Assembly (NCBI GenBank): GCA_964638425.1
Contig: CAZWYM010000002.1
Location: 2,547 to 66,546 of the forward strand
Source: an uncultured Candidatus Saccharibacteria bacterium
Lineage (GTDB): Bacteria; Patescibacteriota; Minisyncoccia; Phycocordibacterales; UBA918
DNA: 64,000 bases
Reading direction: 5' to 3'
Shown: positions 1-62,411 of the stretch, in pieces
Layout: each line of letters begins with the position of its first letter
How positions within the stretch are numbered: position 1 is the stretch's first letter
The notes under the pieces: generated by a model
Told to the model about the DNA's origin: nothing
Database searches by the model: none
What the model saw: only the letters and a program-made list of their open reading frames with translations
Position numbers and translations under genes: made by a program

Positions 1-562
1 CGTCTTTAACTCCTCCGAGTTCGAGTACAGTACGTACAGAACTTCCTGCAACGAGTCCACGGCCTGGTGCTGGCATAATCATTACCTCACTTGAAGAAAC
101 TTTAACGTTTACATCATGTGGAATATGCTGATGCTTGTTTAGTGGAATTTCGATAAGGTTCTTTCGCGCATTTCGTACCGCCTTTTCAATTGCAAGCTGT
201 GTGTCTCCAGCCTTTCCGATTCCTACTCCAACCTTGCCCTTTCGGTTACCAATCACAATCGCAACGCTAAAACTGAAGCGACGACCTCCGGCCATCACAC
301 GTGTTACACGTCGGATGCTGATAATTTTTTGATCGAATTCTGAACGTACACGTTCTTCTCTTCGAGGCGCTCGACGCGCTCGGCGTGGGTTTCGTCGACT
401 ATCTGCATCTGCACCACCACGATACGCACCCCGTCCGCTCGCTTCTGCCTTTACGGGAGTTGCCGCATCGCCAGCTGGTGCATCGGTAGTAGCGGTTGTT
501 TCTGCTACTACATCTGAAACTTCCGTTTCATTTATAGCTTCCTGCTGATTTGTTTCACTCAT
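1..562 (-). CDS. rpsE: 30S ribosomal protein S5, 3' end truncated by the window edge; N-terminal Ala/Thr-rich extension
   Basis: Hand translation of the minus strand from the ATG at 560-562 gives MSETNQQEAI...IISIRRVTRVMAGGRRFSFSVAIVIGNRKGKVGVGIGKAGDTQLAIEKAV, the S5 dsRBD/S5 motif. It sits next to rplR in the canonical spc order. Confidence 0.8.
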   Translation of the reverse strand, partial: MSETNQQEAINETEVSDVVAETTATTDAPAGDAATPVKAEASGRGAYRGGADADSRRNPRRARRAPRREERVRSEFDQKIISIRRVTRVMAGGRRFSFSVAIVIGNRKGKVGVGIGKAGDTQLAIEKAVRNARKNLIEIPLNKHQHIPHDVNVKVSSSEVMIMPAPGRGLVAGSSVRTVLELGGVKD

Positions 563-586: not shown

Positions 587-937
587 TTAAAATTCAAGAC
601 CTCCTTCACGCGCTCCTTCTGCGAGCGCAACAACTGCTCCTTGGTATCTGAAACCACCTCGGTCAAATACCACTTTGTTAATTCCCTTCTTTTTTGCTTC
701 AGTTGCAACAAGCTGTCCGATTTCCTTTGCTCGTTCAATCGCTGTCTTTGCCTTTGCCTTTCGTGTATCTGTCCCCACGAGCGTTACTCGCGCCTCATCG
801 TCAATGAGTTGTGCATACATGAAACGGTTGCTTCGAAAGACGGCAAGACGTGGGCATGCTGCAGTACCTTGTACCTTTGCACGAATACGTGCGTGGCGGC
901 GGGTTCGATTTGCTACTTTTTGTGATGTAATACTCAT
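587..937 (-). CDS. rplR: 50S ribosomal protein L18
   Basis: 116-aa ORF. The C-terminal ...KVVFDRGGFRYQGAVVALAEGAREGGLEF is typical of L18. Position is between S5 and L6. Confidence 0.9.
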   Translation of the reverse strand: MSITSQKVANRTRRHARIRAKVQGTAACPRLAVFRSNRFMYAQLIDDEARVTLVGTDTRKAKAKTAIERAKEIGQLVATEAKKKGINKVVFDRGGFRYQGAVVALAEGAREGGLEF

Positions 938-958
938 GATACGTTTCTAAGTGTCAGA

Positions 959-1495
959 CTATGCAACACCTTTCTTACCTTGCTTTCGAATAATATACTC
1001 ACCCTTGTAGTGAATACCCTTTCCTTTGTATGGTTCAGGCTTCTTCTTTTCGCGAATGTCAGCAGCAAATTGTCCAACAACTTCTTTGTCAATTCCTGTA
1101 ACCGTAATAACTCCCTTCTCTGCAGCAACCTGCACTCCCTCTGGAGCAATAAGCTCAACAGGGTGTGAGAAGCCAACTGCAAGTTTGATTTTATTCCCTT
1201 GTGCTTCAGCCTTATACCCAACTCCTTCAATTTCGAGAATCTTTGTGAAACCAACGGTCACTCCCGTTATCATGTTGTGTACATGTGCTGCGTATGTTCC
1301 CCAGAGTGCTTGTGAACTCTTTGTGTCCTTTGCTTTCGCAAGCGTGATTACTCCTCCATCAATCGTTATTGTAATATCACCCGTCACTGTCCGCGTGAGT
1401 TCACCCTTTGGTCCCTTAACCTTAAGTACACCATCAACAAGCGTCACTTCGACGTTTGCAGGGATCTGTACTGGTTGTTTTCCTAATCGACTCAT
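959..1495 (-). CDS. rplF: 50S ribosomal protein L6
   Basis: MSRLGKQPVQIPANVEVTL...KGKGIHYKGE matches the L6 family. Start trimmed to the internal ATG at 1493-1495. The track ORF starts further upstream and overlaps rpsH. Confidence 0.85.
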   Translation of the reverse strand: MSRLGKQPVQIPANVEVTLVDGVLKVKGPKGELTRTVTGDITITIDGGVITLAKAKDTKSSQALWGTYAAHVHNMITGVTVGFTKILEIEGVGYKAEAQGNKIKLAVGFSHPVELIAPEGVQVAAEKGVITVTGIDKEVVGQFAADIREKKKPEPYKGKGIHYKGEYIIRKQGKKGVA

Positions 1496-2379: not shown

Positions 2380-2910
2380 CTAGTGGCATATCTCAAACGC
2401 AATGCCGGTTCCGAAGTTCCAATATCCATTTTTCTTGTCCGGGCATGCAAGAAGCATTTTACATGCGTCAAATATAGTTGCGGTCAGGAAAGAGGGCCTA
2501 TTTTCAGCGGTTTTAATCGGTTTATGAAAAGCAACCACACTTTCAAGTCGTTGCCTTTTGAACTCATCCGGAGAAAATTTCTCCAAAATAAGACACGCTG
2601 CTTCGGCATTGAGCCTCGTCCACTTCATTTTTTCAGCTTTGGCACAGATATTCTCTGTCTCATGTTCACTGACAATGTGTGGGGACACTCTCAGAATCCC
2701 AATGTCGACAATTCGCCCTGAACTTGGAATAAAGTCTGGTGAGTTGAGAATACTTTTTGCAGATTCACTTAAAGTAATGCCATTTCGTTCAAGCCGGTCT
2801 ATCCAGTCAGGGCCTGATGTTCCGTCCGTAACGAAAGTTGCGAAAATTACATTAAATGCGTCCGATTCTAAGTACTGATTTCTATGTGTGCCTACAATGT
2901 CTGTGTTCAT
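2380..2910 (-). CDS. hypothetical protein (176 aa) inserted between rpsZ and rplE; no recognisable family
   Basis: Strong SD (aaggaggg) upstream of the ATG at 2908-2910. Flanked by perfect hairpins at 2331-2363 and 3057-3086 and by R1-family copies. Confidence 0.5.
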   Translation of the reverse strand: MNTDIVGTHRNQYLESDAFNVIFATFVTDGTSGPDWIDRLERNGITLSESAKSILNSPDFIPSSGRIVDIGILRVSPHIVSEHETENICAKAEKMKWTRLNAEAACLILEKFSPDEFKRQRLESVVAFHKPIKTAENRPSFLTATIFDACKMLLACPDKKNGYWNFGTGIAFEICH

Positions 2911-3086: not shown

Positions 3087-3146
3087 ATAGAAAGTTTTAT
3101 CGTATTCAATTACTTAGTCTTCTTCTCTGATTCCTTTTGGAGGGGA

Positions 3147-3235
3147 AGGGTCAAGTTGCTAATTCGCTACGCTTATAAGTAAGCACTTCCTCCCCGGACT
3201 CGCCACTTTTGCATTAGTAATAGCAAAAGTATGGC
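3147..3235 (-). repeat. R1 structured-repeat copy H (sense on the minus strand, 3' of rplE)
   Basis: ttgctaattcgctacgcttataagtaagcacttcctccccggactcgcc-[acttttgc attagtaat agcaaaagt]-atggctccgtctc. Confidence 0.6.
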
Positions 3236-3289
3236 TCCGTCTCTTTCCATTGCCGAACGAGAAACTGTTCTCATTCTAAAAATAGTAAA

Positions 3290-6615: not shown

Positions 6616-6954
6616 CTATTTTTTATCACCTGAACTCTTTGCTGCCTTTGCTGCTGCAACTTCAGCCTCCTTTCGCTTTGTTTCAAGCTCCTTCTGCATC
6701 TTACCTCCGTGTCGAATAAACTTCTTCGTAGGAGAAAATTCACCAAGTCGGTGACCTACCATTTCTTCAACAACAAGGACTTCAACGTGCGTCTTGCCAT
6801 TATGTACACCGAACTTGAATCCAACCATTTCTGGTGAAATTACTGAAGCGCGATCCCACACTTTAACAACCGCAGTATCTGCTGGCTTCTTGTCTTGAAT
6901 TTTCTTCAAGATTTTTGGGTTGATATATGGTCCTTTATATAGTGATCGTGACAT
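6616..6954 (-). CDS. rpsS: 30S ribosomal protein S19 with a Lys/Ala-rich C-terminal extension
   Basis: 112 aa; ...FGVHNGKTHVEVLVVEEMVGHRLGEFSPTKKF... Confidence 0.9.
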   Translation of the reverse strand: MSRSLYKGPYINPKILKKIQDKKPADTAVVKVWDRASVISPEMVGFKFGVHNGKTHVEVLVVEEMVGHRLGEFSPTKKFIRHGGKMQKELETKRKEAEVAAAKAAKSSGDKK

Positions 6955-7278
6955 AAAACAATAAGGCGCAGTTTGCGCATAAAAAGGTTGCTCGATTTGA
7001 TAGAAAACACCCTTCCAACAAAGAAATCTGCTGGAAATGCGTGTTCTATGTGAGAACCTCGTGTAATAACAGGTAACGGCCAGTCTTAAACGAAGTGCCC
7101 ACAGAATCTACTAATTGCGTTGCATCACCTGCCAGGGATCTGCAATCGCGGAGGTTCTGGAACGAGGGCTATAGTACGCGAAACAAGAAAGATTGTCAAT
7201 GACTTACGCTCATACTTTCGCAGAAATAAAAAAAGAACCCGACATTGTCGAGTTCTGTATGCCCTAAGGGCGATTCGA

Positions 7279-8076
7279 TTAGGAACTTGGTGCTGATGTC
7301 CAGGAAATTGCCCTATGGATTGGCGCGCTGCTTTTGATTAGCTTTACGACGATTTCAGGACACTTCTGTGGATCATACTTCACAATAACCTTCTGGTTGG
7401 CTGAACCTGGAAAGGCGACCGCTCGAATTGACTTTGTAAGCGTCTTCTTCGATTTAGCAGCGTTTTCAAGAACTAAAGCAGTTATGTATGCTCCGAGGCT
7501 CGTCTGCTCTTCCTTTAAACCAATTGAAATAGCCCTATTATGAGTCGCCATTTCCAGAAAAGGGGTCAAATCAGGTTTTATAATTAAATGAAACTGTGGA
7601 TATGAATTTCTGGCAAATGTTTCTTTTGCCAGAAAACTAGCCGTGACACTTTCAGGAATTTTAATACTATCCTTGTGACATTTTGCAACCCGAGATGCTG
7701 AGGGGAACACAATGACGAGAAGAGCATAGCCGTGCATTACCTTTAACTGATTTTCAGAATAAGGGACGTACATGAGGTCTACATTCTTTTTCAACTTTGA
7801 GTCGATGTGAAATAAACTCAACATCTCATCTATTGAGTGCATGTCTTCGCCAAATATCTCTTTTGCACGCCAGATTGGTGTACGCATTGCCTCGATACGT
7901 GACGCTTGTTCCTGCTCGACCAGAGCAACCTTTTTTGCTCTGCGTGTCGCTAATTTCGTGACAACAGCTTGCTTAATCCGGCTTGCACCAGCCCTAACTT
8001 TTGAGCGTACAGCCCCCCGTTTTGTTGTTGATGAAGTATTTCCTGTTTCTTTACTTTCTGCTTGTAAGCCAAACAT
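7279..8076 (-). CDS. hypothetical protein (265 aa) with a basic N-terminal region
   Basis: Long ORF with an ATG start. Co-oriented with the ribosomal cluster inside the rpsS-rplB insertion. No family recognised. Confidence 0.45.
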   Translation of the reverse strand: MFGLQAESKETGNTSSTTKRGAVRSKVRAGASRIKQAVVTKLATRRAKKVALVEQEQASRIEAMRTPIWRAKEIFGEDMHSIDEMLSLFHIDSKLKKNVDLMYVPYSENQLKVMHGYALLVIVFPSASRVAKCHKDSIKIPESVTASFLAKETFARNSYPQFHLIIKPDLTPFLEMATHNRAISIGLKEEQTSLGAYITALVLENAAKSKKTLTKSIRAVAFPGSANQKVIVKYDPQKCPEIVVKLIKSSAPIHRAISWTSAPSS

Positions 8077-8194: not shown

Positions 8195-8980
8195 TTACTT
8201 AGTATGCCTTTTTTGTATAAAAATGGCATACGGAGGCTTCTGCTTTTCTGGATTCGGGTCAAACCCCCCAAGGGTGCACATGAGCGGGGCTATGGTACTC
8301 GACTTGGGACCAAATCCTCCGTTTTGGTGAATAAACACCGGGACACCATTCTTGTGTGCAACACACACCATGAAATGATAGTCTGACATACCACTATTTT
8401 GATACATGTCTGCAAGATCTTCTGCTGACCAGACACTATGTTTTTCTCTTTTCCCTATTTCAAGAAATGAATTGCCTTCAGACTGCAGCTTCTTATTACG
8501 ACGATATAGCTGCCGGTGTTGCTTGGAAACTCGGCGGGAGTGATACACTTTTGAATAGTAAAATAGACAGAGTGTGTCGCCAACTTTGATACGTTGTCCT
8601 GTATACGTAGTCATCAGTCCTTCAAATATGAAGTGCCGATTACTTGTACATTCTATGAACACACCCGTTTTCAAGTAGTGGGCAAAAACTGAGCAGTTGG
8701 TCACATACTTGCCGTAGTAGTTATCAAGATATATACGTATCCGTTCTGAGAGCTCTTTGTCACTAATGTAACCCTGAACACTCGTAGTCGAATCACCACT
8801 TCCTTGTTCAAGGTTATATAACAAACTATGGCTCGTAATGTTTCTAGCCATACGCCGTCCTACCCTATTACCACGCGCATCACGTATATGACTTCCATTG
8901 GAAACCAACTTGTGCAACGCGTGATGCCCACCAACCTCCCTTGCTTCCGTCACTAACACAGAGACATTTTGTGAGTACAT
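8195..8980 (-). CDS. putative LRAT/NlpC-P60-superfamily (permuted papain-like) domain protein
   Basis: H-box-like GGHHALHKLVSNGSHI about 80 aa upstream of an NCSVFAHY motif, comparable to the HWAIYVGDGYVVH ... NCEHFV spacing of LRAT/HRASLS enzymes. Start placed at the ATG at 8978-8980, which follows an aaggaag SD; the track ORF starts at an upstream TTG. Confidence 0.4.
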   Translation of the reverse strand: MYSQNVSVLVTEAREVGGHHALHKLVSNGSHIRDARGNRVGRRMARNITSHSLLYNLEQGSGDSTTSVQGYISDKELSERIRIYLDNYYGKYVTNCSVFAHYLKTGVFIECTSNRHFIFEGLMTTYTGQRIKVGDTLCLFYYSKVYHSRRVSKQHRQLYRRNKKLQSEGNSFLEIGKREKHSVWSAEDLADMYQNSGMSDYHFMVCVAHKNGVPVFIHQNGGFGPKSSTIAPLMCTLGGFDPNPEKQKPPYAIFIQKRHTK

Positions 8981-9174
8981 TCTACTTCCTTTCAATGAAC
9001 AATATTGAAAATATTATAACATATATTTTGAATAAAGCAAAAATACCCCAAGCGGGGGGTATTTTCTTTATGCATGATTCTTTTAATATACAGCTTGGGT
9101 CTCAAAATCTATTTTGAATAAGATTTTGAGACAGACTCAGAAAATATAATCGCTACGCTCTTTATTTTCTGGCC

Positions 9175-9270
9175 ACATGGTTCCGTCTTGGTTCTCGATA
9201 CGTACCTACCTTGAGGCAGGTACTAGAGAATAAAAAATACCTCGCATATGCGAGGTATTTTTTATTCTAC
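9175..9270 (-). repeat. R2 repeat copy 1 (two tandem hairpins, one a 44-bp palindrome at 9226-9269)
   Basis: About 90% identical to 14679-14793 and 15015-15133: acatggttccgtcttggttctcgatacgtacct..aggcaggtactagagaataaaaaatacctcgcatatgcgaggtattttttattct. Confidence 0.85.
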
Positions 9271-9274
9271 CTAC

Positions 9275-9392
9275 TTCGTCACGAATTGCTAAATAAAATA
9301 GCCACCTTGCGGTGGCTATTTTATTAATCATTCGCGACCCCGCCTCGCGGTGCGCCTCATTTTGAATGAGGCTCACAACGCTCCGGCTTGGC
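9275..9392 (-). repeat. R1 structured-repeat copy G (sense on the minus strand), with an extra hairpin at 9291-9325
   Basis: Contains ...tcgcgaccccgcctcgcgg-[gcctcattttgaatgaggc]-caacgctccggc, homologous to copies C, D and E. Confidence 0.7.
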
Positions 9393-9427
9393 GGACTGAA
9401 AATACATATGTATTTCCCTAACGTCCG

Positions 9428-9617
9428 CCACCCATAATCTTTCCTGGCTTGCGACGGGAAACAATGAATGTGTTTGAGTACTTCTTTGGACTTCGTGTCT
9501 TTTGACCCTTTCCAGTTGGACGTCCTTGCTTTGTTCGAGCATGTCGGTGTCCTCGTGGTGCGCGTCCTTCTCCTCCTCCGTATGGATGGTCTACTGCGTT
9601 TCGTGCACTTCCTCGTG
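9428..9617 (-). pseudogene. duplicated 3' fragment of rplB (last ~62 codons plus stop and 7 nt), no start codon
   Basis: Identical to 15135-15324 except 2 mismatches in ataatct versus attattt. The plus-strand track ORFs 9468-9662 and 15175-15375 translate identically over this stretch. Confidence 0.85.
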
Positions 9618-9636
9618 GGTTCTGTGGTTACGTATT

Positions 9637-11601
9637 TTACTGTAACTTTGCATGCTTCTTGAGATATTCATCAACTGTAATCACAAACTCTGCATGACTC
9701 CACACAAGAGGATCTGTGGAGAGATGCTCTCCGGTATATGGATGAATCTGTTCGGGAAGAATACCACTTGTTGTTGCCCTATCGCATACCCATAGCAAAA
9801 TTTCATGTGCTTTTTCCAAATCTTTTTTTGTTTTTGCCAAACGTATATTGTACCGAGCAATCCAAAGAGTTGTAATGCACCATGCATTTGGAGGCGCGTC
9901 GTTGCTAGTCTTAAAATATCGGTCTCCTTCATATCGCATATACCCTCCAAACGTTGTTGGTACTTTTAGTTTTTCGGTCATGTTTGTAAATGCTAACTGC
10001 ATTTTCTGATCATAAACGTCTAACACCCCGAATACAACTAGTCCAAAGAGACTGCTTATATCAACTGTTCCATCATACACAAGTCCTTTTTTTTCATGGC
10101 GCAAAGACTTAATAAAAGTTCCTGATGAAACATCAAATAGATAGGTTAAAATAGCAATTTTTATATGTTCTGCAATATCTCTATAACGTTTTGCATTATC
10201 GCGTTTTCCTAGGACTGCAGAAAGATCCGCCGCAGCACAGAGCGCTCCATACACCGAAGCGGCTGTGTATGTAGAAGAACCATATTTTTCTTCCCAAAGA
10301 TCGTAAGAATCCTTCGGCAATCCAGTTTCAGACTCCCTATACGTACACATGAAATCGGCTGCTGGTTCAATGAATGAATTATAGAGTGACTCAATAAACT
10401 CTAGATCTTTTGCATATACATAATGCTCTCCAAGCATATACAAAACTGTTGCCGTTTCGTCTTCCTGAATCGGCAATTTGAAAACACCATTTTGCAGCCA
10501 CGGATGCCATGAACTACCAAGAACTCCATCGACACGATACTTATGCATGAGATAACCATCTGTTTCTAACCGATCAGACATAAATGAAAAAAACCGTTGC
10601 GTGACATCAATATGCCCCGCTCGATCAAGTGCACCTGCAGTTATTGCGGCGTCGCGTGGCCAGACGTAGCTATACGTATCTCTCCCTTGGTTTAGGATAT
10701 CAGAATCTGATGAAGCTATGATTCCACCTCGATTATCTGTATGCATACGCATAATTACCAACGATCTTTTATAAAGTTGCTGGATATTTTTTTCGAATAT
10801 AGATAAATTGCGTGGTTCTTTTTCAGTCCACGCCTCCCAATATCGTTCGGTTGAAATCACGATTTCTGATGGTTTTGACTCAAGGATATGTTCGTGAATT
10901 CCATGCGCGTCATGTATTGATTTTGCTGCAACAACCCAGTAATAACATTCTGCACTTTGAGAACCCTTTGCTTCAAAAGTAAGCCCTAGCACAGAATCCA
11001 CCGATCCGTGTTCTATAGGATTTCGAGAAAGTATCCCGTCTTCAGCATCTTTGTACGTCCCCTGTTTTCCTTCAATATTAAAAAGTCCGACGCTATAATC
11101 TATAAACGCTATGTCGTTTATAGTTGCATGAATAAGAAAAGTATTATGCCCCTTATAGTGAACGATAGAACGTACCCGAGGATCATAAAACGCGGTATCT
11201 CCCCGTCTTGACTCTGAGATCCTAAACTCTTGCCCAAAAAAAATCTTTATCTCACGATTATAGTCACGTTCGTTGGTGATGATGACCTTCCGCAAAAAAA
11301 TATTTTTTTCATTGTGTACCACATCAGTAAAATGCAATCGAATTCCTTGTGTAGAGTTATACGCATCAATATCGCTTGATCCGGAAAATTCTGTATAGTT
11401 GATGTTTATGTTCCACGAATCATCGCTAAGCCATTTAATAGTACCGTCCACCCAGACACCTATTCGATGCACATACGAACCGCTTGCTCCACTCACATGA
11501 TTTGAATGCCCAACAAATGGGAAATAGAAATCACGGACTTGTCCTCGTCCATCAAGGCCAATGAGTAGACTGCCGTTTCCAATCGTAATTGCTCGAGACA
11601 T
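9637..11601 (-). CDS. glycoside hydrolase family 15-like (glucoamylase/glucodextranase-type), N-terminal beta-sandwich plus (alpha/alpha)6 domain
   Basis: 654 aa; YSYVWPRDAA motif and GH15 architecture. Confidence 0.65.
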   Translation of the reverse strand: MSRAITIGNGSLLIGLDGRGQVRDFYFPFVGHSNHVSGASGSYVHRIGVWVDGTIKWLSDDSWNININYTEFSGSSDIDAYNSTQGIRLHFTDVVHNEKNIFLRKVIITNERDYNREIKIFFGQEFRISESRRGDTAFYDPRVRSIVHYKGHNTFLIHATINDIAFIDYSVGLFNIEGKQGTYKDAEDGILSRNPIEHGSVDSVLGLTFEAKGSQSAECYYWVVAAKSIHDAHGIHEHILESKPSEIVISTERYWEAWTEKEPRNLSIFEKNIQQLYKRSLVIMRMHTDNRGGIIASSDSDILNQGRDTYSYVWPRDAAITAGALDRAGHIDVTQRFFSFMSDRLETDGYLMHKYRVDGVLGSSWHPWLQNGVFKLPIQEDETATVLYMLGEHYVYAKDLEFIESLYNSFIEPAADFMCTYRESETGLPKDSYDLWEEKYGSSTYTAASVYGALCAAADLSAVLGKRDNAKRYRDIAEHIKIAILTYLFDVSSGTFIKSLRHEKKGLVYDGTVDISSLFGLVVFGVLDVYDQKMQLAFTNMTEKLKVPTTFGGYMRYEGDRYFKTSNDAPPNAWCITTLWIARYNIRLAKTKKDLEKAHEILLWVCDRATTSGILPEQIHPYTGEHLSTDPLVWSHAEFVITVDEYLKKHAKLQ

Positions 11602-11606
11602 GGTGC

Positions 11607-11975
11607 TTAAATGATATACAGCTGCAATCGTGAAGCAACAACAGCATGTGCAGTACGTGGTTTCTTTGATTTTCGGAGTGTTGATGCAAGTTCCACATCC
11701 TCGAGGACATGCTCAATCCAATCAGCAAAATCATTTTTTTCTTTTGAGACGTGATGTGCAAAAATTGATTCATCCATTGATTCAAGTGCGTCTTTGAGCT
11801 CAATAAGATTTGAAAGAATGCGACCGTCATTGACCCAAAAAGACTCTTCGAGTTTTGTATGTACGAGAGGTTTTTTTGTTTTTGGCGTCGATACTTTTTT
11901 GCGAGCCACTTTTTGCATAACTGTAGCTACTCTTGTAAGTGCTTTTTTTACTGGGGCTATTTTTTTTGTTTTCAT
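11607..11975 (-). CDS. hypothetical protein with a basic N-terminus (122 aa) inside the alpha-glucan cassette
   Basis: ORF tightly packed between the GH15 and GH57 genes, 6-nt and 22-nt gaps. Confidence 0.4.
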   Translation of the reverse strand: MKTKKIAPVKKALTRVATVMQKVARKKVSTPKTKKPLVHTKLEESFWVNDGRILSNLIELKDALESMDESIFAHHVSKEKNDFADWIEHVLEDVELASTLRKSKKPRTAHAVVASRLQLYII

Positions 11976-11996
11976 AAGAACTAAATGAACTGAGTG

Positions 11997-13331
11997 TTAA
12001 AACGTACGAGACCGCATACGTTTGCGAATAAGTTGGATGCGTACAAAGAGTTTTTGAATGATCGTGTGCAACCATCTCCACACACGAGCATATAGACTTT
12101 TTTCTACTAATTCCAACTTTTCTTTTTTCCTGCGCAAAGTTTGCGATACTCTTAATTGTAAATCACTTACGGCATTCATGAAAGCGATATACGCATCATA
12201 CGGGGATTCGTACGGACTAAAGTACGCATGGACATCTCCATCTTGGAACCATTTGGTACACATATAATAAAAATGATCTGAGGTTTGCAACTTTCTCCAT
12301 GTCTCAACCAGTGTTGTATCTCCAGTACGTAAGACGTTTGCTTCCATGGCATAAATTGTAGAAATAGCGTCTCGTTGAATATCATTACCTACCCAAGCAG
12401 TAAGATCTCGGTCAGTATCTGCCCAAGTCAGAATGTGTGGCACATCAAATTCACCAACATGGTCGTGTGCCTGCACTGTCTCACTCGCAGTCCTAAAACC
12501 CGTATCTCCGTGTGCAAGAATTTTTTCAGGGAGTGCGTCGAGGAAACGGAAAATTCCTGTATCTTCCCACTGATGTTCACCAAACGTCTCAAAGTCCATG
12601 AAAAGATTGATTGTTTGTCCGTCTCCATGATGTGCATGAAGCCATGTAGCATAGGTCTCTGCTCTGAGTGGATACCCTTCCCACCCTTTGTTGCCAAAGC
12701 GAAAGGCAATATCATCAGAAAGTTTATAGTTCTTTAGTAGAACTTTAAGAGTTGAGCACCCTTTTGGTTGATAGACATAATTTGGACTTCGCCATCCAAG
12801 AACAGGATCCCACCCTTCAGCCATAATACCGAGATACCCATTATCTTCACACCATTTTGCAAGTGCGTTCGTATATGAAAGTTCGGTGTTGCGAAATACC
12901 CGAGGTGTATATCCAAATAGTTTTTGAATTTTTTGCTTATGTAGTTCAACCTGACTTTCAAATTCGGATCGAGAATAAAAAAATGCGAGCGAATGATAGT
13001 AGGTATCGGCGAGTATCTCTACCCTTCCTGTTGCGACAAGAGCCTGAAATGCCTGAAGTACTTCAGGCATGTAGGTTTCAAACTGATCAAGTACCGTCCC
13101 AGAAAACGAAAGTGAAAAGCGAAATTCAGGATGCCTTGCAAGAAGTTCTCCAAGGATTTTGGTCGTAGGAATATAAGACTTTGCTGCCACTTTTCTAAGC
13201 ACTTTTTCATTATTAAGTTCAGTCTCGTCATTCGCATTAAAATATTCCGCATCATTTCCAATATCAAAAACCTTATACCGCTTAATTCGATGCGGTTGGT
13301 GAACATGGAAATAGGGGCAAATAGTAAGCAT
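11997..13331 (-). CDS. glycoside hydrolase family 57-like (alpha-amylase/branching-enzyme type)
   Basis: 444 aa; N-terminal ...ICPYFHVHQPHR (GH57 region-I HQP motif), overall GH57-like. Confidence 0.65.
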   Translation of the reverse strand: MLTICPYFHVHQPHRIKRYKVFDIGNDAEYFNANDETELNNEKVLRKVAAKSYIPTTKILGELLARHPEFRFSLSFSGTVLDQFETYMPEVLQAFQALVATGRVEILADTYYHSLAFFYSRSEFESQVELHKQKIQKLFGYTPRVFRNTELSYTNALAKWCEDNGYLGIMAEGWDPVLGWRSPNYVYQPKGCSTLKVLLKNYKLSDDIAFRFGNKGWEGYPLRAETYATWLHAHHGDGQTINLFMDFETFGEHQWEDTGIFRFLDALPEKILAHGDTGFRTASETVQAHDHVGEFDVPHILTWADTDRDLTAWVGNDIQRDAISTIYAMEANVLRTGDTTLVETWRKLQTSDHFYYMCTKWFQDGDVHAYFSPYESPYDAYIAFMNAVSDLQLRVSQTLRRKKEKLELVEKSLYARVWRWLHTIIQKLFVRIQLIRKRMRSRTF

Positions 13332-13339
13332 AAAATATA

Positions 13340-14557
13340 CTACCTCTTAAAGAACATCAAAGCCAATAATTTCCGGTAGAGAATTACTACCTTATCAGCT
13401 GCTCGTCGCCATGTAAGTCTATGTAGCTCCTTTCTTCCTTCATCAGCGAGTTGCTTATTCAAAACTGGATAGGCAAGCGCTGCAATAATTTTATTTGCCA
13501 TATCATCGATATCCCAAAAATCAACCTTAAGTGCATGTGTAAGCACTTCCGCAACGCCAGATTGCTTTGAAATCAGTACGGGGGTACCATGTTGTAGCGA
13601 TTCGAGAGGGACAAGTCCAAACGGCTCAGACACTGACGGCATAACAAGGAGATCTGCTGCCTGATACATCCGGTCACGGTCTTCGTCCCACAGCGCTCCT
13701 GCAAAAATAACATTTTTTGACAGCCCGAGAGTGCCAACCAAATGCATGATTTGATGTTCCATGTCTCCCCACCCAGAAATAACAAAGATGATGCTGGAAT
13801 CATAGTCTACAACTTTTCTCGCCGCATGTATAAAATAGTCGACACCTTTCTGAATCGTTATGCGACCGTTATAAAAAACTATTTTTTTTCCTTGGATTTT
13901 TAGTTCACTGAGCACTGGCGGAAAAACGGGCGGATCATACTGCTTGATTCCATTATGCACAACAGCTACCTTCTCCGGGTCAGTACCATACTTCTTAATG
14001 ACAAGATCTCTTGTGTAATTGCTAATTGCGACCACTGAGTCTGCCACATTGAACGCATATCGTTCTACAGCATAAATCTCAGAATCTACATTGTCGGAGC
14101 CAGCTTGATCAAATGATGTTGCATGCACATGGAGTACTAAAGGTTTCCCTGTTGCGAGTTTTGCAGCAACCCCAGCTAAATAGGATGTCCAGTCATGTGC
14201 ATGGATGATATCGAACTGTTCAAGAAACGCTATCTCATACGCCGCATCGGCATATCGATACACTTCATCTATTATTTTCCTAGAGAAACGTATCCGTTCA
14301 CCACTTGGTGAAAAATATTCTATAAACGACTGGGAGTGTTGGTAGGGGAGAAGTGATGAAGGAAATACGTGTATTTTTGCTGGAGTTTTGTTAGCGAAAA
14401 TAAATTTGTGACTACCGATTGTTGGCTGTTCGCGAGGCAACACAAAAATAATTTCGAGTCCAAGCTCTATGAGTTCCTCAGTAAGCCCGTGGCATGCCAC
14501 ACCGAGTCCTCCATTTTTCATGGGTGGATAATCCCATCCAAATGTCAATATTCTCAT
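13340..14557 (-). CDS. GT-B glycosyltransferase, glycogen/alpha-glucan synthase-like (GT4/GT5)
   Basis: 405 aa; MRILTFGWDYPPMKNGGLGVACHGLTEEL resembles the GlgA KxGGL-type N-terminus. C-terminal half is GT1-domain-like. Confidence 0.65.
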   Translation of the reverse strand: MRILTFGWDYPPMKNGGLGVACHGLTEELIELGLEIIFVLPREQPTIGSHKFIFANKTPAKIHVFPSSLLPYQHSQSFIEYFSPSGERIRFSRKIIDEVYRYADAAYEIAFLEQFDIIHAHDWTSYLAGVAAKLATGKPLVLHVHATSFDQAGSDNVDSEIYAVERYAFNVADSVVAISNYTRDLVIKKYGTDPEKVAVVHNGIKQYDPPVFPPVLSELKIQGKKIVFYNGRITIQKGVDYFIHAARKVVDYDSSIIFVISGWGDMEHQIMHLVGTLGLSKNVIFAGALWDEDRDRMYQAADLLVMPSVSEPFGLVPLESLQHGTPVLISKQSGVAEVLTHALKVDFWDIDDMANKIIAALAYPVLNKQLADEGRKELHRLTWRRAADKVVILYRKLLALMFFKR

Positions 14558-14678
14558 GTATATGTCAGAACATTCTGCACAAATAAGTTTTGCACAATGC
14601 TACTCAAATATTATTATACAGACAAATCGTTATATGAGAAATAATTGCATTCTGGCATACTGATAAGCAAAAACATGA

Positions 14679-14793
14679 CTCCGCTCCGTGCGACATGGTT
14701 CCGTCTTGGTTCTCGATACGTACCTGCCTCAAGGCAGGTACTAGAGAATAAAAAATACCTCGCATATGCGAGGTATTTTTTATTCTCTATCGA
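14679..14793 (-). repeat. R2 repeat copy 2 (46-bp perfect palindrome at 14744-14788)
   Basis: See R2 copy 1. Ends with tattctctatcga, which equals the last codons plus stop of rplB. Confidence 0.85.
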
Positions 14794-14799
14794 CCACGT

Positions 14800-14895
14800 C
14801 ACGAGTTACTAAATTCGCTTCGCTCATTAAGTACTCGCGACCCCACCTCGCTCGTTTTTGTCTCCTTATGGTCGACAAAACATCGCTCCGGTTTG
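14800..14895 (-). repeat. R1 structured-repeat copy C (sense on the minus strand)
   Basis: The reverse complement reads aaccggagcgatg-[ttttgtc gaccataaggaga gacaaaa]-aacgagcgag-gtggggtcgcgagta-cttaatgagcgaagcgaatttag. Confidence 0.8.
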
Positions 14896-15014
14896 TAAGC
14901 AGGTCGGGAGCAAAGCCTTTTGTATCTACCGACTTCGTCACTGGTTTCTAAGTAAAATAATTGCAGAGCAATCATTTCGCTAAGAACCATCGACCCCGAC
15001 TCACCTGTCGTACT

Positions 15015-15133
15015 CGCTCCGCTCCGTGCGACATGGTTCCGTCTTGGTTCTCGATACGTAACTGCCTCAAGGCAGTTACTAGAGAATAAAAAATACCTCA
15101 CACATGTGAGGTATTTTTTATTCTCTATCGAGA
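15015..15133 (-). repeat. R2 repeat copy 3, immediately 3' of rplB; its palindrome at 15081-15126 overlaps the rplB TAG stop at 15125-15127
   Basis: Same structure as copies 1 and 2, with compensatory substitutions: cctcGcaTatgCgagg becomes cctcAcaCatgTgagg, and gtacCtgcc..ggcagGtac becomes gtaActgcc..ggcagTtac. Confidence 0.85.
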
Positions 15134-15985
15134 ACCACCCATTATTTTTCCTGGCTTGCGACGGGAAACAATGAATGTGTTTGAGTACTTCTTTGGACTT
15201 CGTGTCTTTTGACCCTTTCCAGTTGGACGTCCTTGCTTTGTTCGAGCATGTCGGTGTCCTCGTGGTGCGCGTCCTTCTCCTCCTCCGTATGGATGGTCTA
15301 CTGCGTTTCGTGCACTTCCTCGTGTCTTTGGTCGCACACCTCGTTGTCGTGCGCGCCCTGCCTTACCGAGAGTAATCAAACGATATTCTTCGTTTGAAAC
15401 TTCACCGATAGTTGCCCAACAGGTGCTGAGAATTCGTCGAATTTCAGATGAAGGCATCTTCACGAGTGTGTACCCTGCGTCTTGTGCAACAACTTCAGCC
15501 TTATTTCCTGCAGACCGCGCGATTCGTGCACCTGCTCCTGGCTTAAGCTCGATTGCAAAAACAAAGGTACCTACTGGGATATTCCCAAGCGGTAGACGAT
15601 TTCCTGACTTTGGCTTTGCTGTTTCTGAAACAATAAATTCATCTCCCTTTACCATCCCCTTTGGTGCGAGAACGTATCTTCGTTCACCATCCTTAAAGAG
15701 AACGAGTGCGATGAATCCTGAACGGAATGGATCGTATTCAATTGATTCTACAATCGCAGGAATATCCTTTTTATTGTAGACAAAATCTACTTCACGGTAT
15801 GTACGCTTATGTCCACCTCCTCGGTAGAGATTTGTAGTACGTCCTGTGCTATTTCGTCCTCCAGTACTTCTTCGTCCTTGTGTAAGACTCTTGAGTGGGG
15901 CGTTTTTCTTTGTCGTGAGGACTTCTCGGTATGACACTACGGTCATTCCACGTCGTCCCGCTGATGTTGGTTTATATTTTTTCAC
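15125..15985 (-). CDS. rplB: 50S ribosomal protein L2; apparent GTG start
   Basis: 286 aa; ...GRNSTGRTTNLYRGGGHKRTYR...HPYGGGEGR... are L2 signatures. Confidence 0.9.
   Translation of the reverse strand: MKKYKPTSAGRRGMTVVSYREVLTTKKNAPLKSLTQGRRSTGGRNSTGRTTNLYRGGGHKRTYREVDFVYNKKDIPAIVESIEYDPFRSGFIALVLFKDGERRYVLAPKGMVKGDEFIVSETAKPKSGNRLPLGNIPVGTFVFAIELKPGAGARIARSAGNKAEVVAQDAGYTLVKMPSSEIRRILSTCWATIGEVSNEEYRLITLGKAGRARQRGVRPKTRGSARNAVDHPYGGGEGRAPRGHRHARTKQGRPTGKGQKTRSPKKYSNTFIVSRRKPGKIMGGSR
15135..15324 (-). repeat. native rplB 3' segment that forms the 190-bp direct repeat with 9428-9617
   Basis: Direct comparison of the two stretches. Confidence 0.9.
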
Positions 15986-17933: not shown

Positions 17934-18776
17934 TCATTTAATAAAAATTCCGGTGCGAAGTTCTTCCATTGCCATTTGAAGCTCTTCGTCAGTGTTCATG
18001 ACGATTGGACCAGCCCAGCTGATACTTTCATGAAGTGGCTTCCCTCCGATGAGGAGAAACCGTGCGCCGTCTTTGCCCCCTGCACAGGTGAAATCAAAAT
18101 CATTGGTAAGGAGACCAATCTCACCTTCCCCGAGCCACAGCTCTGTTCTATCGTCACGGACTGATACACGCCCCTCAAATACGTACACAAAAAATGTATC
18201 TTCTCGGTTTGTTGGTAACGAGAATTGCGTGCGTTCTCCGAGTGTTATGTCGAGATATGTCGGAGCTACCATAAGATCTTGGACAGGACCTTTAATACCG
18301 TGGTATTCACCCGCAATAACCCTCACTTCGCTCCCATCGCCATGCACCGTCTTAATCTCGGTACTCTTAATTTCTTGGTAGCGTGGTGCCATCATTTTGT
18401 GTGTTGCGGGAAGATTGACCCAAAGTTGGAAACCCTGAACCCCTTCTTCATGCACAACCGGCATCTCTTCATGAATAAGCCCACTTCCGGCAGTCATCCA
18501 CTGAACTTCGCCAGTCTTAATACTCCCTTCATTTCCCATACTGTCTTTATGGTGTACCTCTCCTTTCAATATATAGGTAACCGTTTCAATACCGCGGTGA
18601 GGGTGCTTAGGAAATCCGTGCATATACGCATCCGCGTCAGTGTTACTAAAATCATCAAAAAGGAGAAACGGGTCAAAGAGTTTTGCGAGTTCAGGTCCAC
18701 CAAATCCACGATTGAGATGTACTCCAGCACCTTCGAGAGTTGGTGTGGTTTTGTATGTCTTCAGTATTTTCCTCAT
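17934..18776 (-). CDS. pirin-family cupin protein (quercetin 2,3-dioxygenase-like), inserted between rplC and rpsJ
   Basis: 280 aa; GFPKHPHRGIETVTYILKGEVHHKDSMGN carries the pirin HxH...E...H metal site. Confidence 0.75.
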   Translation of the reverse strand: MRKILKTYKTTPTLEGAGVHLNRGFGGPELAKLFDPFLLFDDFSNTDADAYMHGFPKHPHRGIETVTYILKGEVHHKDSMGNEGSIKTGEVQWMTAGSGLIHEEMPVVHEEGVQGFQLWVNLPATHKMMAPRYQEIKSTEIKTVHGDGSEVRVIAGEYHGIKGPVQDLMVAPTYLDITLGERTQFSLPTNREDTFFVYVFEGRVSVRDDRTELWLGEGEIGLLTNDFDFTCAGGKDGARFLLIGGKPLHESISWAGPIVMNTDEELQMAMEELRTGIFIK

Positions 18777-21627: not shown

Positions 21628-21649
21628 CTAGGCTTCCTCAATATCTTTC

Positions 21650-21745
21650 AGCGTCAGGTTTCTAAACTCACCACGTTCGTTAAGAACCTCCTGCCCGGCC
21701 TCACGGTTTCGTCTCCTTGCGGTCGACGAAACATCGTTCCGGCTT
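21650..21745 (-). repeat. R1 structured-repeat copy D (sense on the minus strand, 3' of fusA)
   Basis: The reverse complement reads agccggaacgatg-[tttcgtc gaccgcaaggaga gacgaaa]-ccgtgag-gccgggcaggaggtt-cttaacgaacgtggtgagtttagaaacctgacg. Confidence 0.8.
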
Positions 21746-21888
21746 TTGTCAAGGACTGAAGAAGCTTACGCTTCTTCTTCAATATCCTTCCCTCCTTACA
21801 GGAGCAGTACACCTTGTGGATATTTTGTTTCGTTAGGATTCACAAAATACCTCACAAGCTCGGTAAAAGATATATCGAAGCAATAACT

Positions 21889-51987: not shown

Positions 51988-52590
51988 ATGCAATCAAAAG
52001 AATCACAAATAAATAGCTACCTCGTCCCAATGGTTATCGAAAAGACCCAGGCTGGAGAACGTGCTTTCGACATATTTTCTCGACTCCTCAAAGAACGTAT
52101 CATTTTCGTTACTGGAGGTATAGATGACCACATGGCAAATCTTATTGTTGCGCAACTTCTCTTCCTTGAAGCTGAAGACCCAAAAAAGGATATTTTCATG
52201 TATGTTAATTCCCCAGGAGGTTCTGTAAGTGCAGGACTTGGTATTGTCGACACTATGAATCACATCAAGCCTGATGTCGCTACTGTTTGTGTTGGTCTCG
52301 CTGCATCAATGGGTTCTATCATCCTCTCACAGGGAGCGAAAGGAAAGCGAAGTATCCTGCCTAATGCAGAAGTTATGATTCACCAACCATGGGGAGGAAC
52401 ACAGGGCCAAGCGACTGATATTGAAATTACCGCTCGCCATATTCTCCGTACACGAGATACCCTCAACAAAATGCTCGCTAAGGCAGCAGGTAAGCCACTT
52501 GCGCAAATTGAAAAAGACACTGACCGAGATTTCTTCATGACTGCTGAAGAAGCAAAGAAATATGGCTTAGTCGATACTATTCTAAAATAG
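51988..52590 (+). CDS. clpP: ATP-dependent Clp protease proteolytic subunit
   Basis: ...[18 protein letters not shown]...AASMGS...MIHQP... The Ser-His-Asp triad context is present. Start trimmed to the ATG at 51988. Confidence 0.9.
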
Positions 52591-52600
52591 TATCGACTAA

Positions 52601-52695
52601 GAGCCGGAGCGATGTGAACCCTATTAATAATGGGTGAACCAGCGAGGCCGGGGAGAAACCACTTATGAACGAAGTGAATTAGTGAGTTGACCCTG
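52601..52695 (+). ncRNA. R1 structured-repeat copy A (plus sense, 3' of clpP); putative ncRNA or 3'UTR element
   Basis: gagccggagcgatgtga-[accc tattaataat gggt]-gaaccagcgag-gccggggagaaacc-acttatgaacgaagtgaattag. It is flanked by the clpP stop-overlapping palindrome (52559-52600) and by the terminator at 52746-52775. Confidence 0.6.
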
Positions 52696-52745
52696 GTCGA
52701 TACCATCCTTAAGTAGTCTATGCCTTTTTAAGCTCAAACAACGTC

Positions 52746-55128: not shown

Positions 55129-55337
55129 ATATCCACATCTACTCCACATATTTCAATTTTTATAACTAGTGATACAATAATGGAGTAGCGGAGGTATTAA
55201 CTTGGTTTCATGTACACCAAGTCAACGTTACATACAAAGAGGTATAGAATGTTTAGTTCTATGTCTCACCACAACAAAAGCCCCACGCGAGGGGCTTTTG
55301 TGTTGTATAAAATTAGAAATTTTATACAACACAAAAG

Positions 55338-55430
55338 AAACGAGCGATGTGAGGGACTATTCATAATGTCCCGAACCAGCGAGTTCGGGTAGGTAAATCT
55401 TATGAGCGAAGCGAATTAGATTTGGACGCT
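55338..55430 (+). ncRNA. R1 structured-repeat copy B (plus sense, 3' of hup), sandwiched between two long hairpins
   Basis: aaacgagcgatgtga-[gggac tattcataat gtccc]-gaaccagcgag-ttcgggtaggtaaat-cttatgagcgaagcgaattag. Stem nucleotides are compensatory relative to copy A. Confidence 0.6.
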
Positions 55431-55616
55431 TTGTGTTTTAGAGTGATTCAATATCACTCTAAAACACAAAAGCCGACCTTGTCAGATGTTTTTCCGCAAA
55501 GCAGGAAAAAGATCAACAAGGTGTACCGTCCCTGTAAGGGAATTTTGTGTTGGGGGCTTGCGCAGGTAGACTCCCCTTGATACGCTCAACTAAGGTATAC
55601 ACTACGAGGAGTTCTT

Positions 55617-61991: not shown

Positions 61992-62281
61992 GTCGCTTCA
62001 TGTGGAACTATATAACAGAAGATACATTCATGCCAGTGTTTCACGTGAAACAATAACAAATATAATATATTGCGATATAATCGTTGATCTGTATGTTATT
62101 AGCCATTTTTTAAGGACATATTTATTAAAATTTTTGTCCTTTATACACATATCAACTCGTTTATCCCCAGTTATCCACCATGTGGATTTCTAGTAGAGGA
62201 TTTGTCTTTTATGGGGTAGGGGGATCGAAAGCTTACTTGAACAAAATCGAAACCTGACGGTTACTAATAACCAGTACTTGG

Positions 62282-62375
62282 TGTCAGGTTTCTAAGTTCG
62301 TTACACTCACTAAGAACCTCCTACCCGACCTCGCGGTTTCGCCATAAATTATAGGCGAAACATCGCTCCGGTTCA
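62282..62375 (-). repeat. R1 structured-repeat copy E (sense on the minus strand, 3' of tRNA-Gly-GCC), with an extra 3' hairpin at 62249-62290
   Basis: The reverse complement reads aaccggagcgatg-[tttcgcc tataatttatg ggcgaaa]-ccgcgag-gtcgggtaggaggtt-cttagtgagtgtaacgaacttagaaacctgaca. Confidence 0.8.
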
Positions 62376-62383
62376 CAAAACTA

Positions 62384-62411
62384 AAAAACACTGCGTAGGC
62401 AGTGTTTTTCT
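62384..62411 (-). terminator. hairpin aaaaaacactgc-gtag-gcagtgtttttc 3' of tRNA-Gly-GCC
   Basis: Perfect stem with A/T tracts. Confidence 0.6.

Follow-up and report, generated by a model that had tools for sequence, protein, structure and literature searches.

An alpha-glucan operon bounded by a duplicated rplB 3' end: a recombination scar at the rplB-rpsS gap of a paceibacterial genome

The E. coli elements e14 and phage 21, which are prophage-like and have an integrase gene of their own, sit in the 3' end of icd; they supply a substitute gene end on a scale of 100-200 nt and leave behind a displaced pseudo-3' fragment, with direct repeats at the flanks. Islands integrate in tRNA genes. Repetitive extragenic structured elements are exemplified by REP/BIME in E. 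coli and BOX in pneumococcus. Homology-facilitated illegitimate recombination, or 3'-end displacement, leaves orphan 3' fragments and, as displacement of C-terminal ends, has been proposed for Rhs loci and for the T6SS effector-immunity arrays of Vibrio cholerae (PMC5361080); that article cites de Vries & Wackernagel 2002, Prudhomme et al. 2002 and Jackson et al. 2009.

The locus described here belongs to a genome of the Paceibacteria (CPR) and lies in a stretch of 64,000 nucleotides (the window), in which segments 9428-9617 and 15135-15324, each 190 nt long, are identical at 188 of 190 positions, as the original prediction had stated. The two mismatches fall at 9436/15143 and 9439/15146, so that 9440-9617 matches its counterpart at 100% across 178 nt, and a search of the 64-kb window returned these two occurrences only. 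Every gene at the locus, and every feature given below, lies on the minus strand. The first copy in gene order, R(A) (15135-15324), lies within the full-length rplB (uL2, 286 aa; 15125-15985), which was identified from its open reading frame and translation and shares 96.5% amino acid identity with rplB of L090 (GCA_043719255.1), the closest relative, at 5.9% amino acid difference over six ribosomal proteins. The second copy, R(B) (9428-9617), recognized by the repeat match, its reading frame and comparison with L090, is an orphan 3' fragment of rplB. The rplB frame is kept through 9418-9617 to a stop codon of its own (9418-9420), an in-frame TAA stands four codons upstream, and the first start is an ATG five codons before the end. 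The fragment had been described as start-less, which it is, and as encoding ~62 residues, where we counted about 65. The true end of the repeat is ...ATGGGTGG, beyond which R(A) and R(B) diverge completely. R(A) passes into tail A (15125-15134; TTCTCGATAG, ...MGGSR-stop), a substitute tip unlike the L090 type, which restores a complete rplB and whose stop codon sits in the stem of the next palindrome, while R(B) passes into tail B (9418-9427; CGGACGTTAG, ...MGGGR-stop), which is identical to the real rplB tip in L090. Tips among relatives read MGG(K/G)R-stop. The full-length gene is the resident allele as far as 15135, followed by the replaced tip.

The nature of the intervening DNA was clarified by the relatives. 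In L090 the order is rplB-h266-h265-rpsS, with no glucan operon at the site; rplB there runs straight into the genes that in the window follow the fragment, and the intervening segment is an insertion relative to L090, as had been predicted. L090 positions 8660-9090, which comprise the rplB end and downstream non-coding DNA, align to window positions 9617-9188 at 91% identity; the orphan copy and its flank are therefore orthologous to a real rplB end. Next to them lie two ORFans resident in the rplB-rpsS gap, h266 (8195-8980; 261 aa from the ATG), whose homologue stands directly after rplB in L090, and h265 (7279-8076), with 32% amino acid identity to its L090 neighbour. Among 5.8 billion proteins h266 had 2 homologue clusters only, and it gave no match in Pfam, NCBIfam or PHROGs. 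As judged from the relatives and a promoter pattern, the variable gap is closed on its right by rpsS, which is preceded by a conserved region of its own and a promoter-like site (6616-7199; site at 7171-7199). In the more distant L083 and L174 the comparison of rplB-rpsS adjacency, which the original prediction had recommended, gave the order rplB, E (a structured element described below), promoter, operon and rpsS, with no rplB duplicate. Given the L090 layout on the one hand and that of L083 and L174 on the other, the window holds both gap contents in tandem, linked via the orphan rplB end. The gap spans 0.1-6.8 kb across 49 related species, rplB ends in a palindrome that resembles a terminator, and rpsS has a promoter-like site of its own. 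In Paceibacteria this gap, an operon boundary, is a hot spot for the insertion of genes, and the repeats are a recombination scar at that hot spot, not a self-mobile element.

Between the repeats lie the four co-oriented genes that had been listed, and Pfam matches agree with their assignments. They encode a glycogen-synthase-like GT4/GT5 glycosyltransferase (GT, 13340-14557; 405 aa; Glycos_transf_1, Glyco_transf_4 and Glyco_transf_5), whose matches to NCBIfam glgA-type models fall below the model cut-offs; a GH57 family alpha-glucan enzyme (11997-13331; 444 aa; PF03065, E = 1.6e-68); a small conserved operon protein (11607-11975; 122 aa; weak DUF5752 match in Pfam), present in the operon of most relatives; and a GH15 glucoamylase/oligosaccharide-amylase-like enzyme (9637-11601; 654 aa; PF00723; TIGR01577 at 345 bits, below cut-off), whose homologues number thousands. 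Co-oriented GT4/GT5, GH57 and GH15 genes in conserved order point to an operon of alpha-glucan (glycogen-like) metabolism. A promoter-like site (TTCTCA-16-TATAAT by sequence pattern; 14613-14640) precedes GT, the ~100 nt upstream of which are homologous in L083 and L174; the operon would have kept this promoter, and its transcript probably stops at the terminator of the displaced rplB end. About 60 loci share the gene order GT-GH57-(hyp)-GH15, with GH15 identities as low as 41%, and the usual place of the operon is between rpmG and truB (L084, L086, L176 and many metagenome loci), with a move elsewhere in others. Thus, what had been proposed as a mobile cassette is a deeply conserved core unit.

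The locus is like e14 and phage 21 in its housekeeping-gene 3' end, substitute gene end, displaced fragment and flanking direct repeats, and a site-specific system with the rplB terminus as attachment site had been among the original proposals; an integrative element of that kind would carry a substitute gene end. The insert is indeed bounded by direct repeats in the manner of attL and attR, the substitute tip keeps rplB intact, and L090 offers an empty site. The locus differs from those elements, however, in that no recombinase or phage gene was found among the proteins scanned, and in that L083 and L174 have the same cargo at this site without repeats. The four operon proteins, h266 and h265 gave no recombinase-family match in Pfam, NCBIfam or PHROGs, in a scan confined to these proteins; the remaining ORFs from rplW to rpsS are either ribosomal or spurious, and neither a tRNA nor a tmRNA was found at the operon or the site. 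Moreover, a 190-nt block of identity with an arbitrary start within a gene is unlike a core attachment site, and the cargo is a housekeeping operon with a different usual location. We regard such an element as exceedingly improbable here.

The repeats themselves carry information on their origin. The window lineage is set apart from L090 by 15 substitutions in this segment; R(A) and R(B) have all 15 in common, differ from each other at 2 sites, and are 82% identical to L083 and L174. Because the 15 differences are common to both, the two copies represent the resident allele and not reciprocal chimeras of donor and recipient. This bears on the Campbell-type integration that had been suggested, in which a non-replicating circle carrying an rplB 3' fragment, tail A, the E array and the operon would have entered by one homologous crossover within the 190-nt segment. 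Such an event would account for the duplication by topology with no extra assumptions, for direct repeats of exactly the size of the homology segment on both sides of the cargo, and for a left copy ending in the foreign tip and a right copy ending in the native one. Insertion duplications made with suicide plasmids have the same homology-sized repeats and may likewise be lost by recombination between them; a loss of this kind, which had been anticipated, would here give exactly the L090-type layout. A diverged donor predicts reciprocal chimeras, however, whereas 15 of 15 lineage differences are shared, so that the donor fragment would have to be ~99% identical to the resident yet bear a foreign tip, E array and operon, or conversion would have to have followed. 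Unlike the product of suicide-plasmid integration, the block has no vector backbone, and neither a replicon nor vector-like genes are present. Thus the flanking repeats fit this proposal, while the foreign rplB fragment that it requires is weakened, and we consider integration of a circle unlikely.

The operon appears to have a history different from that of its surroundings. Ribosomal proteins grouped the genomes as ((window, L090), (L083, L174)). The three-point branch of the window was 11.5% for ribosomal proteins (versus 3.1% and 3.5%) and 6.6% for GT plus GH57 (versus 4.6% and 7.6%); the window operon is thus closer to the L083 and L174 operons than the distance between the species would lead one to expect, an indication of transfer. 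With a branch of 6.6% against 11.5%, and no operon at this site in L090, the cargo derives from another lineage and is xenologous to the ribosomal backbone, by a relative-rate argument as distinct from a full phylogeny. Operon DNA is 80% identical to that of L083, no more than the flanking ribosomal genes are, so that the case for xenology depends on how fast the proteins evolved relative to one another; an acceleration of the ribosomal proteins on the stem of the window and L090 would undo it. The GC and tetranucleotide comparison that had been advised revealed only a mild deviation (GC 0.409 versus 0.434; tetranucleotide z about 2.5).

Operon distances that depart from the species tree also argue against an old arrangement kept uniform by conversion, in which the ancestor of the window and L090 would already have had rplB, operon, fragment and h266-h265, and L090 would have lost the operon by recombination between the repeats. 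The operon does follow rplB in three lineages (window, L083 and L174), L090, with rplB plus tail B, has the exact product of a repeat-by-repeat deletion, and both mismatches fall at the repeat's 3' edge, the place at which conversion tracts would stop. Yet conversion would have had to be continuous over about 14% DNA divergence without operon loss, the 5' end of the repeat shows no diverged edge, and the E arrays behind R(A) and R(B) differ from each other as much as between species; we rate this history as quite unlikely. In agreement with the original reading of the near-identity, the duplication event, or else the last homogenisation by gene conversion, is recent.

The best explanation, in which we place moderate confidence, is that a 5.7-kb block (15134-9618) recombined into the extreme 3' end of rplB through one homologous and one illegitimate joint. 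The block would comprise the substitute rplB tip, the E element array and GT-GH57-hyp-GH15, and the donor would have been a related Paceibacterium with the operon already directly after rplB, as in L083 and L174. The homologous joint would lie in the last bases of rplB, between 15147 and 15135, and the illegitimate joint would have fused DNA lying 20 nt beyond the GH15 stop with resident rplB sequence at a point 190 nt upstream of the homologous one. Equivalently, two gap alleles, one with the operon and one with h266-h265, both next to the same resident rplB, may have been joined by one illegitimate crossover. The resident rplB end, with its E element and terminator and with h266-h265, would have been displaced downstream as an orphan, rplB would have been left intact with one residue changed (GGGR to GGSR), and no element-encoded recombinase would have taken part. 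The anatomy of the locus, the gene orders of the relatives, the resident origin of both copies and the xenology of the operon are results of the comparison; the order of these steps and their enzymology are what we infer.

Block recombination of this kind would resemble the displacement proposed for Rhs and T6SS loci, in which the conserved 5' part of a gene serves as homology anchor, a new 3' tip and cargo arrive with the incoming DNA, and no dedicated recombinase is involved. In the window, too, the 5' part is retained ahead of a new tip and cargo, and the old 3' end, orphaned without a start, is shifted downstream with its former neighbours; as in those loci, repeated rounds would build arrays. 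The window differs in that the gene encodes an essential ribosomal protein and not a polymorphic toxin, only three codons were replaced, and the cargo is a metabolic operon. The orphan and the retained gene have 190 nt of resident sequence in common, which makes the outcome a duplication rather than a simple replacement. Entry of a linear fragment by a homologous joint at one end and an illegitimate joint at the other would not of itself duplicate 190 bp of the recipient, however; for that, a further copy of the chromosome, a template switch or a circular intermediate is needed. The donor is unsampled, tail A (MGGSR-stop) being unlike the L083 and L174 tips (...MANSGK-stop), and the D1 hairpins next to the incoming block are 84-96% like the resident D1, which is hard to square with a left part of wholly foreign origin unless the hairpins have been homogenised. 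At the illegitimate joint, within the junction spacer between the GH15 stop and the rplB fragment (9618-9636), possible ACCAMAGA microhomology is weak: ACCACAGA and ACCAAAGA, which adjoin the joint 9618/9617, match at 7/8 positions with a 3-nt gap.

The spacer was recovered in Logan assemblies of two separate sequencing runs, SRR12762296 and SRR12762276, whose contigs (L001 and L002) are 100% identical to 14722-9588 and 12200-9588, respectively. L001 begins at 14722, and both contigs end exactly 30 nt inside the repeat; since they cross into it, the junction of GH15 and the rplB fragment is present in the raw reads of separate runs, and contigs of three further runs confirm 9204 through rpsS. 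With the junction seen at 100% identity in two runs, the rearrangement exists under any topology. An assembly problem would instead require an L090-like chromosome (rplB-tail B-h266), the operon unit as a separate circle or tandem amplification, and a mis-threaded 178-nt exact repeat. Short-read graphs cannot order the two exits of such a repeat, the Logan contigs break there, and no independent contig reads from R into either tail, A or B, the tail order coming from the deposited assembly only. A 5.7-kb circle without replication genes would, however, be too scarce to assemble, the succession rplB, E, operon is the natural order in L083 and L174, and the deposited contig is 124 kb; we judge this alternative very unlikely.

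The R1 and R2 repeats flanking the operon are part of an undescribed structured RNA-like element, E. Behind the functional rplB lie D1c (15017-15131; repeat search families D1, I5 and I8), E(A1) (14929-15062; cmsearch 95.8 bits), E(A2) (14790-14910; 92.8 bits) and D1b (14679-14793; repeat search). D1c contains a terminator-like hairpin that forms a perfect palindrome (15080-15127), another hairpin (15058-15079) and the initial 41 nt of E(A1), and is 96% identical to D1b, which has hairpin 1 at 14742-14789, hairpin 2 at 14720-14741 and an E start truncated at 14679. Behind the orphan lie E(B) (9270-9406; 102.4 bits), the orthologue of the E after rplB in L090, and D1a (9161-9275; repeat search and cmsearch), with hairpin 1 at 9227-9268, hairpin 2 at 9202-9223 and the first part of an E copy that is degenerate (9091-9206); D1a likely serves as terminator of the glucan operon transcript. 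An integron-like cassette array with E as attC analogue was rejected, no integrase having been found and E not standing at the end of every cassette. Copies stand directly after rplB or other highly expressed genes only, not between genes in large gaps. The closest analogue of E and D1 is REP/BIME/BOX, from which E differs in its strong enrichment after ribosomal, other translation-related or highly expressed genes, in long near-invariant single-stranded motifs across species, and in matching no Rfam family. Like REP/BIME/BOX, E and D1 are modular intergenic hairpin units, often in tandem and in sense orientation after genes, with many copies per genome and stems preserved by compensatory changes.

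All genes at the locus are encoded on the minus strand and, in the order of transcription, tuf, rpsJ, a pirin gene, rplC, rplD, rplW and full-length rplB (15985-15125) are followed by a non-coding array (15131-14679), a four-gene alpha-glucan operon comprising GT (14557-13340), GH57 (13331-11997), a 122-aa hypothetical protein (11975-11607) and GH15 (11601-9637), a 19-nt spacer, a start-less rplB 3' fragment (9617-9418), a second non-coding array (9406-9091), the ORFans h266 (8980-8195) and h265 (8076-7279), and rpsS (6954-6616). The original prediction that near-identical 190-bp direct repeats of rplB bracket the glucan genes was confirmed: the copy in the full gene (15135-15324) and the copy in the orphan fragment (9428-9617) had 2 mismatches over 190 nt, both near the 3' edge, and shared 178 nt of perfect identity, with no further copy elsewhere within the 64-kb window. 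Both copies end in the shared bases ...ATGGGTGG, past which the real rplB continues with TTCTCGATAG (MGGSR*; tail A) and the fragment with CGGACGTTAG (MGGGR*; tail B). A reading of the final 27 nt of the copies as synonymous divergence was rejected, because comparison with the closest relative, L090 (GCA_043719255.1; 5.9% amino acid difference over six ribosomal proteins), puts the breakpoint after GGTGG; in the same comparison, the two mismatches upstream of this breakpoint are single substitutions.

By its rplB protein, the window belongs to the Paceibacteria (Kaiserbacteria-like Patescibacteria). The L090 locus reads tuf, rpsJ, pirin, rplC, rplD, rplW, rplB, h266 homologue, h265 homologue and rpsS, with no glucan operon between rplB and rpsS, so that the operon is an insertion relative to this layout, as predicted. 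Positions 8660-9090 of L090, which hold the authentic 3' end of rplB plus the non-coding DNA after it, were 91% identical to 9617-9188 of the window, and the L090 rplB tip is of the tail B type. Since the end of L090 rplB aligns to the fragment and its flank, the orphan and everything downstream of it represent the resident layout. Two further relatives, L083 and L174, carry rplC, rplD, rplW, rplB, GT-GH57-hyp-GH15, a small ORF and rpsS, without an rplB duplicate at either locus, and their GH15 proteins are 89% and 75% identical, respectively, to that of the window. All three operon-bearing loci (window, L083 and L174) share an arrangement in which the ~100 nt before GT form a homologous promoter region, itself preceded by a structured non-coding element, E, and a terminator. 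Thus, the window holds both gap contents in tandem, with the rplB fragment as the seam, and the pre-insertion (L090), donor-type (L083, L174) and merged (window) states are all at hand. Between the operon and rpsS of L174 and L175, we also observed a 219-aa ORF (L174:8783-9442) with a match to the RNA polymerase alpha C-terminal domain.

The junction itself was reproduced in independent assemblies. Logan assemblies of two sequencing runs matched 14722-9588 and 12200-9588 at 100% identity, both contigs ending exactly 30 nt inside the repeat, the behaviour expected of k=31 contigs, and three further runs reproduced the sequence from 9204 through the rpsS operon. Because Logan contigs from separate runs carry the GH15-to-rplB-fragment joint, the junction is physical; the assignment of tails to copies is that of the deposited contig, which is 124 kb long. 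An exact look-up of rplB returned no record, as Logan contigs break inside the repeat.

The two repeat copies had all 15 of their differences from L090 in common, and identity to L083 and L174 was 82% for each. Each thus represents the resident allele, and it follows that the copies were duplicated, or last converted, recently relative to the split between window and L090, in agreement with the original prediction of a recent event or ongoing gene conversion. An old duplication is argued against by the same observation, unless conversion has been continuous. The prediction of an insertion with a recombination scar, recent and losable, stood, while the mobility mechanisms proposed for it were not supported: simple Campbell-type integration of a circle carrying a foreign rplB fragment would leave reciprocal chimeras, yet both copies proved to be resident, and a site-specific system using the rplB terminus found no support, since neither the four operon proteins nor h266 and h265 matched a recombinase or phage family (Pfam, NCBIfam, PHROGs) and no tRNA or tmRNA gene that could act as an attachment site lies nearby.

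The most likely history combines a homologous left joint with an illegitimate right joint. The left joint would be a homologous crossover in the final bases of rplB, the left boundary of the foreign DNA lying in the rplB tip or the E array, and the right joint an illegitimate one connecting a point 20 nt beyond the GH15 stop to a position 190 nt upstream in the resident rplB. The duplication could have arisen in a replicative or two-chromosome event, or in two steps, in which homologous allele replacement came first and the operon and h266 alleles then underwent an illegitimate crossover. Such an event would follow the logic of homology-facilitated illegitimate recombination, or 3'-end displacement, a process known from Rhs and T6SS loci, where it leaves orphan 3' fragments behind (PMC5361080); it is a known type of event, unusually readable here since relatives keep both parental layouts. 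As a result, rplB would be intact with one residue changed, and the operon would be transcribed from its own promoter (14640-14613) and probably terminate at the rplB terminator that was shifted downstream (9268-9227). A single recombination between the direct repeats would remove the operon, leaving a locus like that of L090, and strains may therefore differ in glucan metabolism. The locus is a clean natural case in which a reduced CPR genome gained operon-sized DNA without mobile-element machinery, the anchor for recombination being an essential, conserved gene.

The cargo is a core alpha-glucan operon and not the mobile cassette originally envisaged. The order GT-GH57-(small protein)-GH15 is kept in ~60 loci, with GH15 identities down to 41%, and the usual context is aldolase, rpmG(-), operon, truB(-) (L084, L086, L176, L098-L109); aldolase, rpmG and truB were not found within the window. 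At two loci (L094 and L156) rpmG directly adjoins truB, and the operon is found ~5 kb off, past a DEAD-box helicase gene, which indicates that it has moved more than once. Composition, proposed as a check for foreign origin, deviated slightly (GC 0.409 vs 0.434; tetranucleotide z ~2.5), too mildly to decide the question, and was set aside as a test of origin. The ribosomal-protein tree was ((window, L090), (L083, L174)), with amino acid differences of 14.6% for window-L083, 14.9% for window-L174 and 6.6% for L083-L174, as against 11.2%, 14.2% and 12.3%, respectively, for GT+GH57; the three-point branch leading to the window was 11.5% for ribosomal proteins and 6.6% for GT+GH57, although between L083 and L174 evolution of the enzymes was ~1.9 times faster than that of the ribosomal proteins. 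The window operon is thus much closer to the L083 and L174 operons than the species distance allows which, together with its absence from the L090 site, indicates that the window lineage acquired it from a relative of the L083/L174 clade. The donor is not among the sampled genomes, because its rplB tip (MGGSR*) is unlike those of L083 and L174. Furthermore, the hyp+GH15 half of the L174 operon (L174:5763-8103) differed by 27-28% in amino acids from L083 and the window, compared with 12-14% for GT+GH57, a mosaic showing that the operon recombines between lineages.

The 115-nt repeats flanking the rplB copies (9161-9275, 14679-14793 and 15017-15131, minus strand), together with the adjoining sequences, are part of a modular non-coding element consisting of a terminator-like palindrome, a second hairpin and a core of ~135 nt, E, in which near-invariant motifs alternate with two variable hairpins (consensus CCAAGCCGGAGCG, hairpin, GAGGCGGGGUCGCGAGUACUUAG, hairpin, UUAGUAACUCGUGACG). 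From their position, the repeats R1 and R2 of the original prediction are probably E copies. Strong covariation supports a structured element: when 17 copies (14 loci) were aligned, compensatory changes were seen at 19 of the 26 predicted pairs and 94.5% of cells were paired, a value that fell to 25-44% when partners were slid; a G-U pair in 16 of the 17 sequences identifies the rplB strand as the strand of E. Across 1.33 Mb of loci centred on rplB, a covariance model detected 53 copies, most of them 60-350 nt past the rplB stop, and only 3 in 1.02 Mb of GH15-centred loci. The array after rplB comprises two full copies (14929-15062 and 14790-14910, minus strand) and a 41-nt truncated start of a third, and that after the fragment one full copy (9270-9406, minus strand) and one weak, degenerate copy (9091-9206, minus strand). 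Within the window E also follows fusA, rplE, clpP and the HU gene, the remaining copies lying at 62273-62390(-), 21645-21761(-), 52590-52700(+), 3140-3259(-) and 55321-55435(+), and among relatives it occurs at L039:10926-11061 and ~45 other loci. Across Paceibacteria, E lies in sense orientation shortly after rplB and after further highly expressed genes (fusA, rplE, clpP, HU, rpmG), often as tandem copies that follow a palindromic terminator. No Rfam family matched E, the only sub-threshold hits being terminator-like hairpins (Leu_leader, OrzO-P and others) with none over the core, and literature searches found no description of the motif.

Glucan genes adjoining rplB, or a second rplB fragment, were found in none of 80 species-representative loci (L003-L082). 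In the 49 that also hold rpsS, the rplB-rpsS gap ranged from 101 to 6830 nt (median 1830 nt), and its content was mostly unrelated from species to species. A terminator-like hairpin with a perfect palindrome closes rplB, and a promoter-like site lies within a conserved upstream region belonging to rpsS itself; together these make rplB/rpsS an operon boundary in this clade, and a hypervariable one. The "universal" ribosomal cluster of Paceibacteria is thus split at this point into separate transcription units, with the boundary as a hypervariable insertion site, which bears on marker-gene binning and synteny-based phylogenomics. In 26 of the 49 relatives the gap holds an opposite-strand gene for a conserved ~105-aa protein (MPKPRG.EHTTLTETA...MIAPGII...ELIISGQ.VQKVAVH...KPG; for example L011:10852+738..1058, L034:10858+67..387, L017, L031 and L039) that was not found in the window, L090, L083, L003 or L004. 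Nine of the 80 MAG contigs stop within 250 nt past rplB, suggesting that assembly breaks there. An apparent duplicate rplB in another MAG (L044 vs L045) was rejected as a redundant contig (99.8% identical).

Other parts of the ribosomal cluster vary as well. The pirin gene (17934-18776) lies between rpsJ and rplC, also in close relatives (L003, L009, L090), and in other species the interval extends to 4-6 kb, making it a second variable spot. The rplE-rpsH site is a third insertion point, where a 176-aa ORFan (2380-2910, minus strand) lies directly past the E copy at 3140-3259; it had no Pfam or PHROGs hit, and its match elsewhere reached just 36% (L080). Conserved from species to species, E is found precisely at the variable spots of the cluster, after rplB, rplE and fusA. 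It is conceivable, though we consider it very improbable, that the rplB tip and E array form a dedicated landing pad for the capture and swap of operons and ORFans in the CPR ribosomal cluster, where E would either supply the homology shared between species or be recognised by a recombinase encoded at another locus; in that scenario, a general gene-capture system would have left the 190-nt rplB repeats as one of its visible products. Literature searches found no account of insertions in the CPR ribosomal cluster. Among 5.8 billion proteins, h266 and h265 each had only two homologue clusters, and an h265 homologue (L093:1531-2283; 55% identity) lies directly after rplQ-rplM-rpsI, another ribosomal operon, so that these ORFans apparently travel alongside ribosomal gene clusters.
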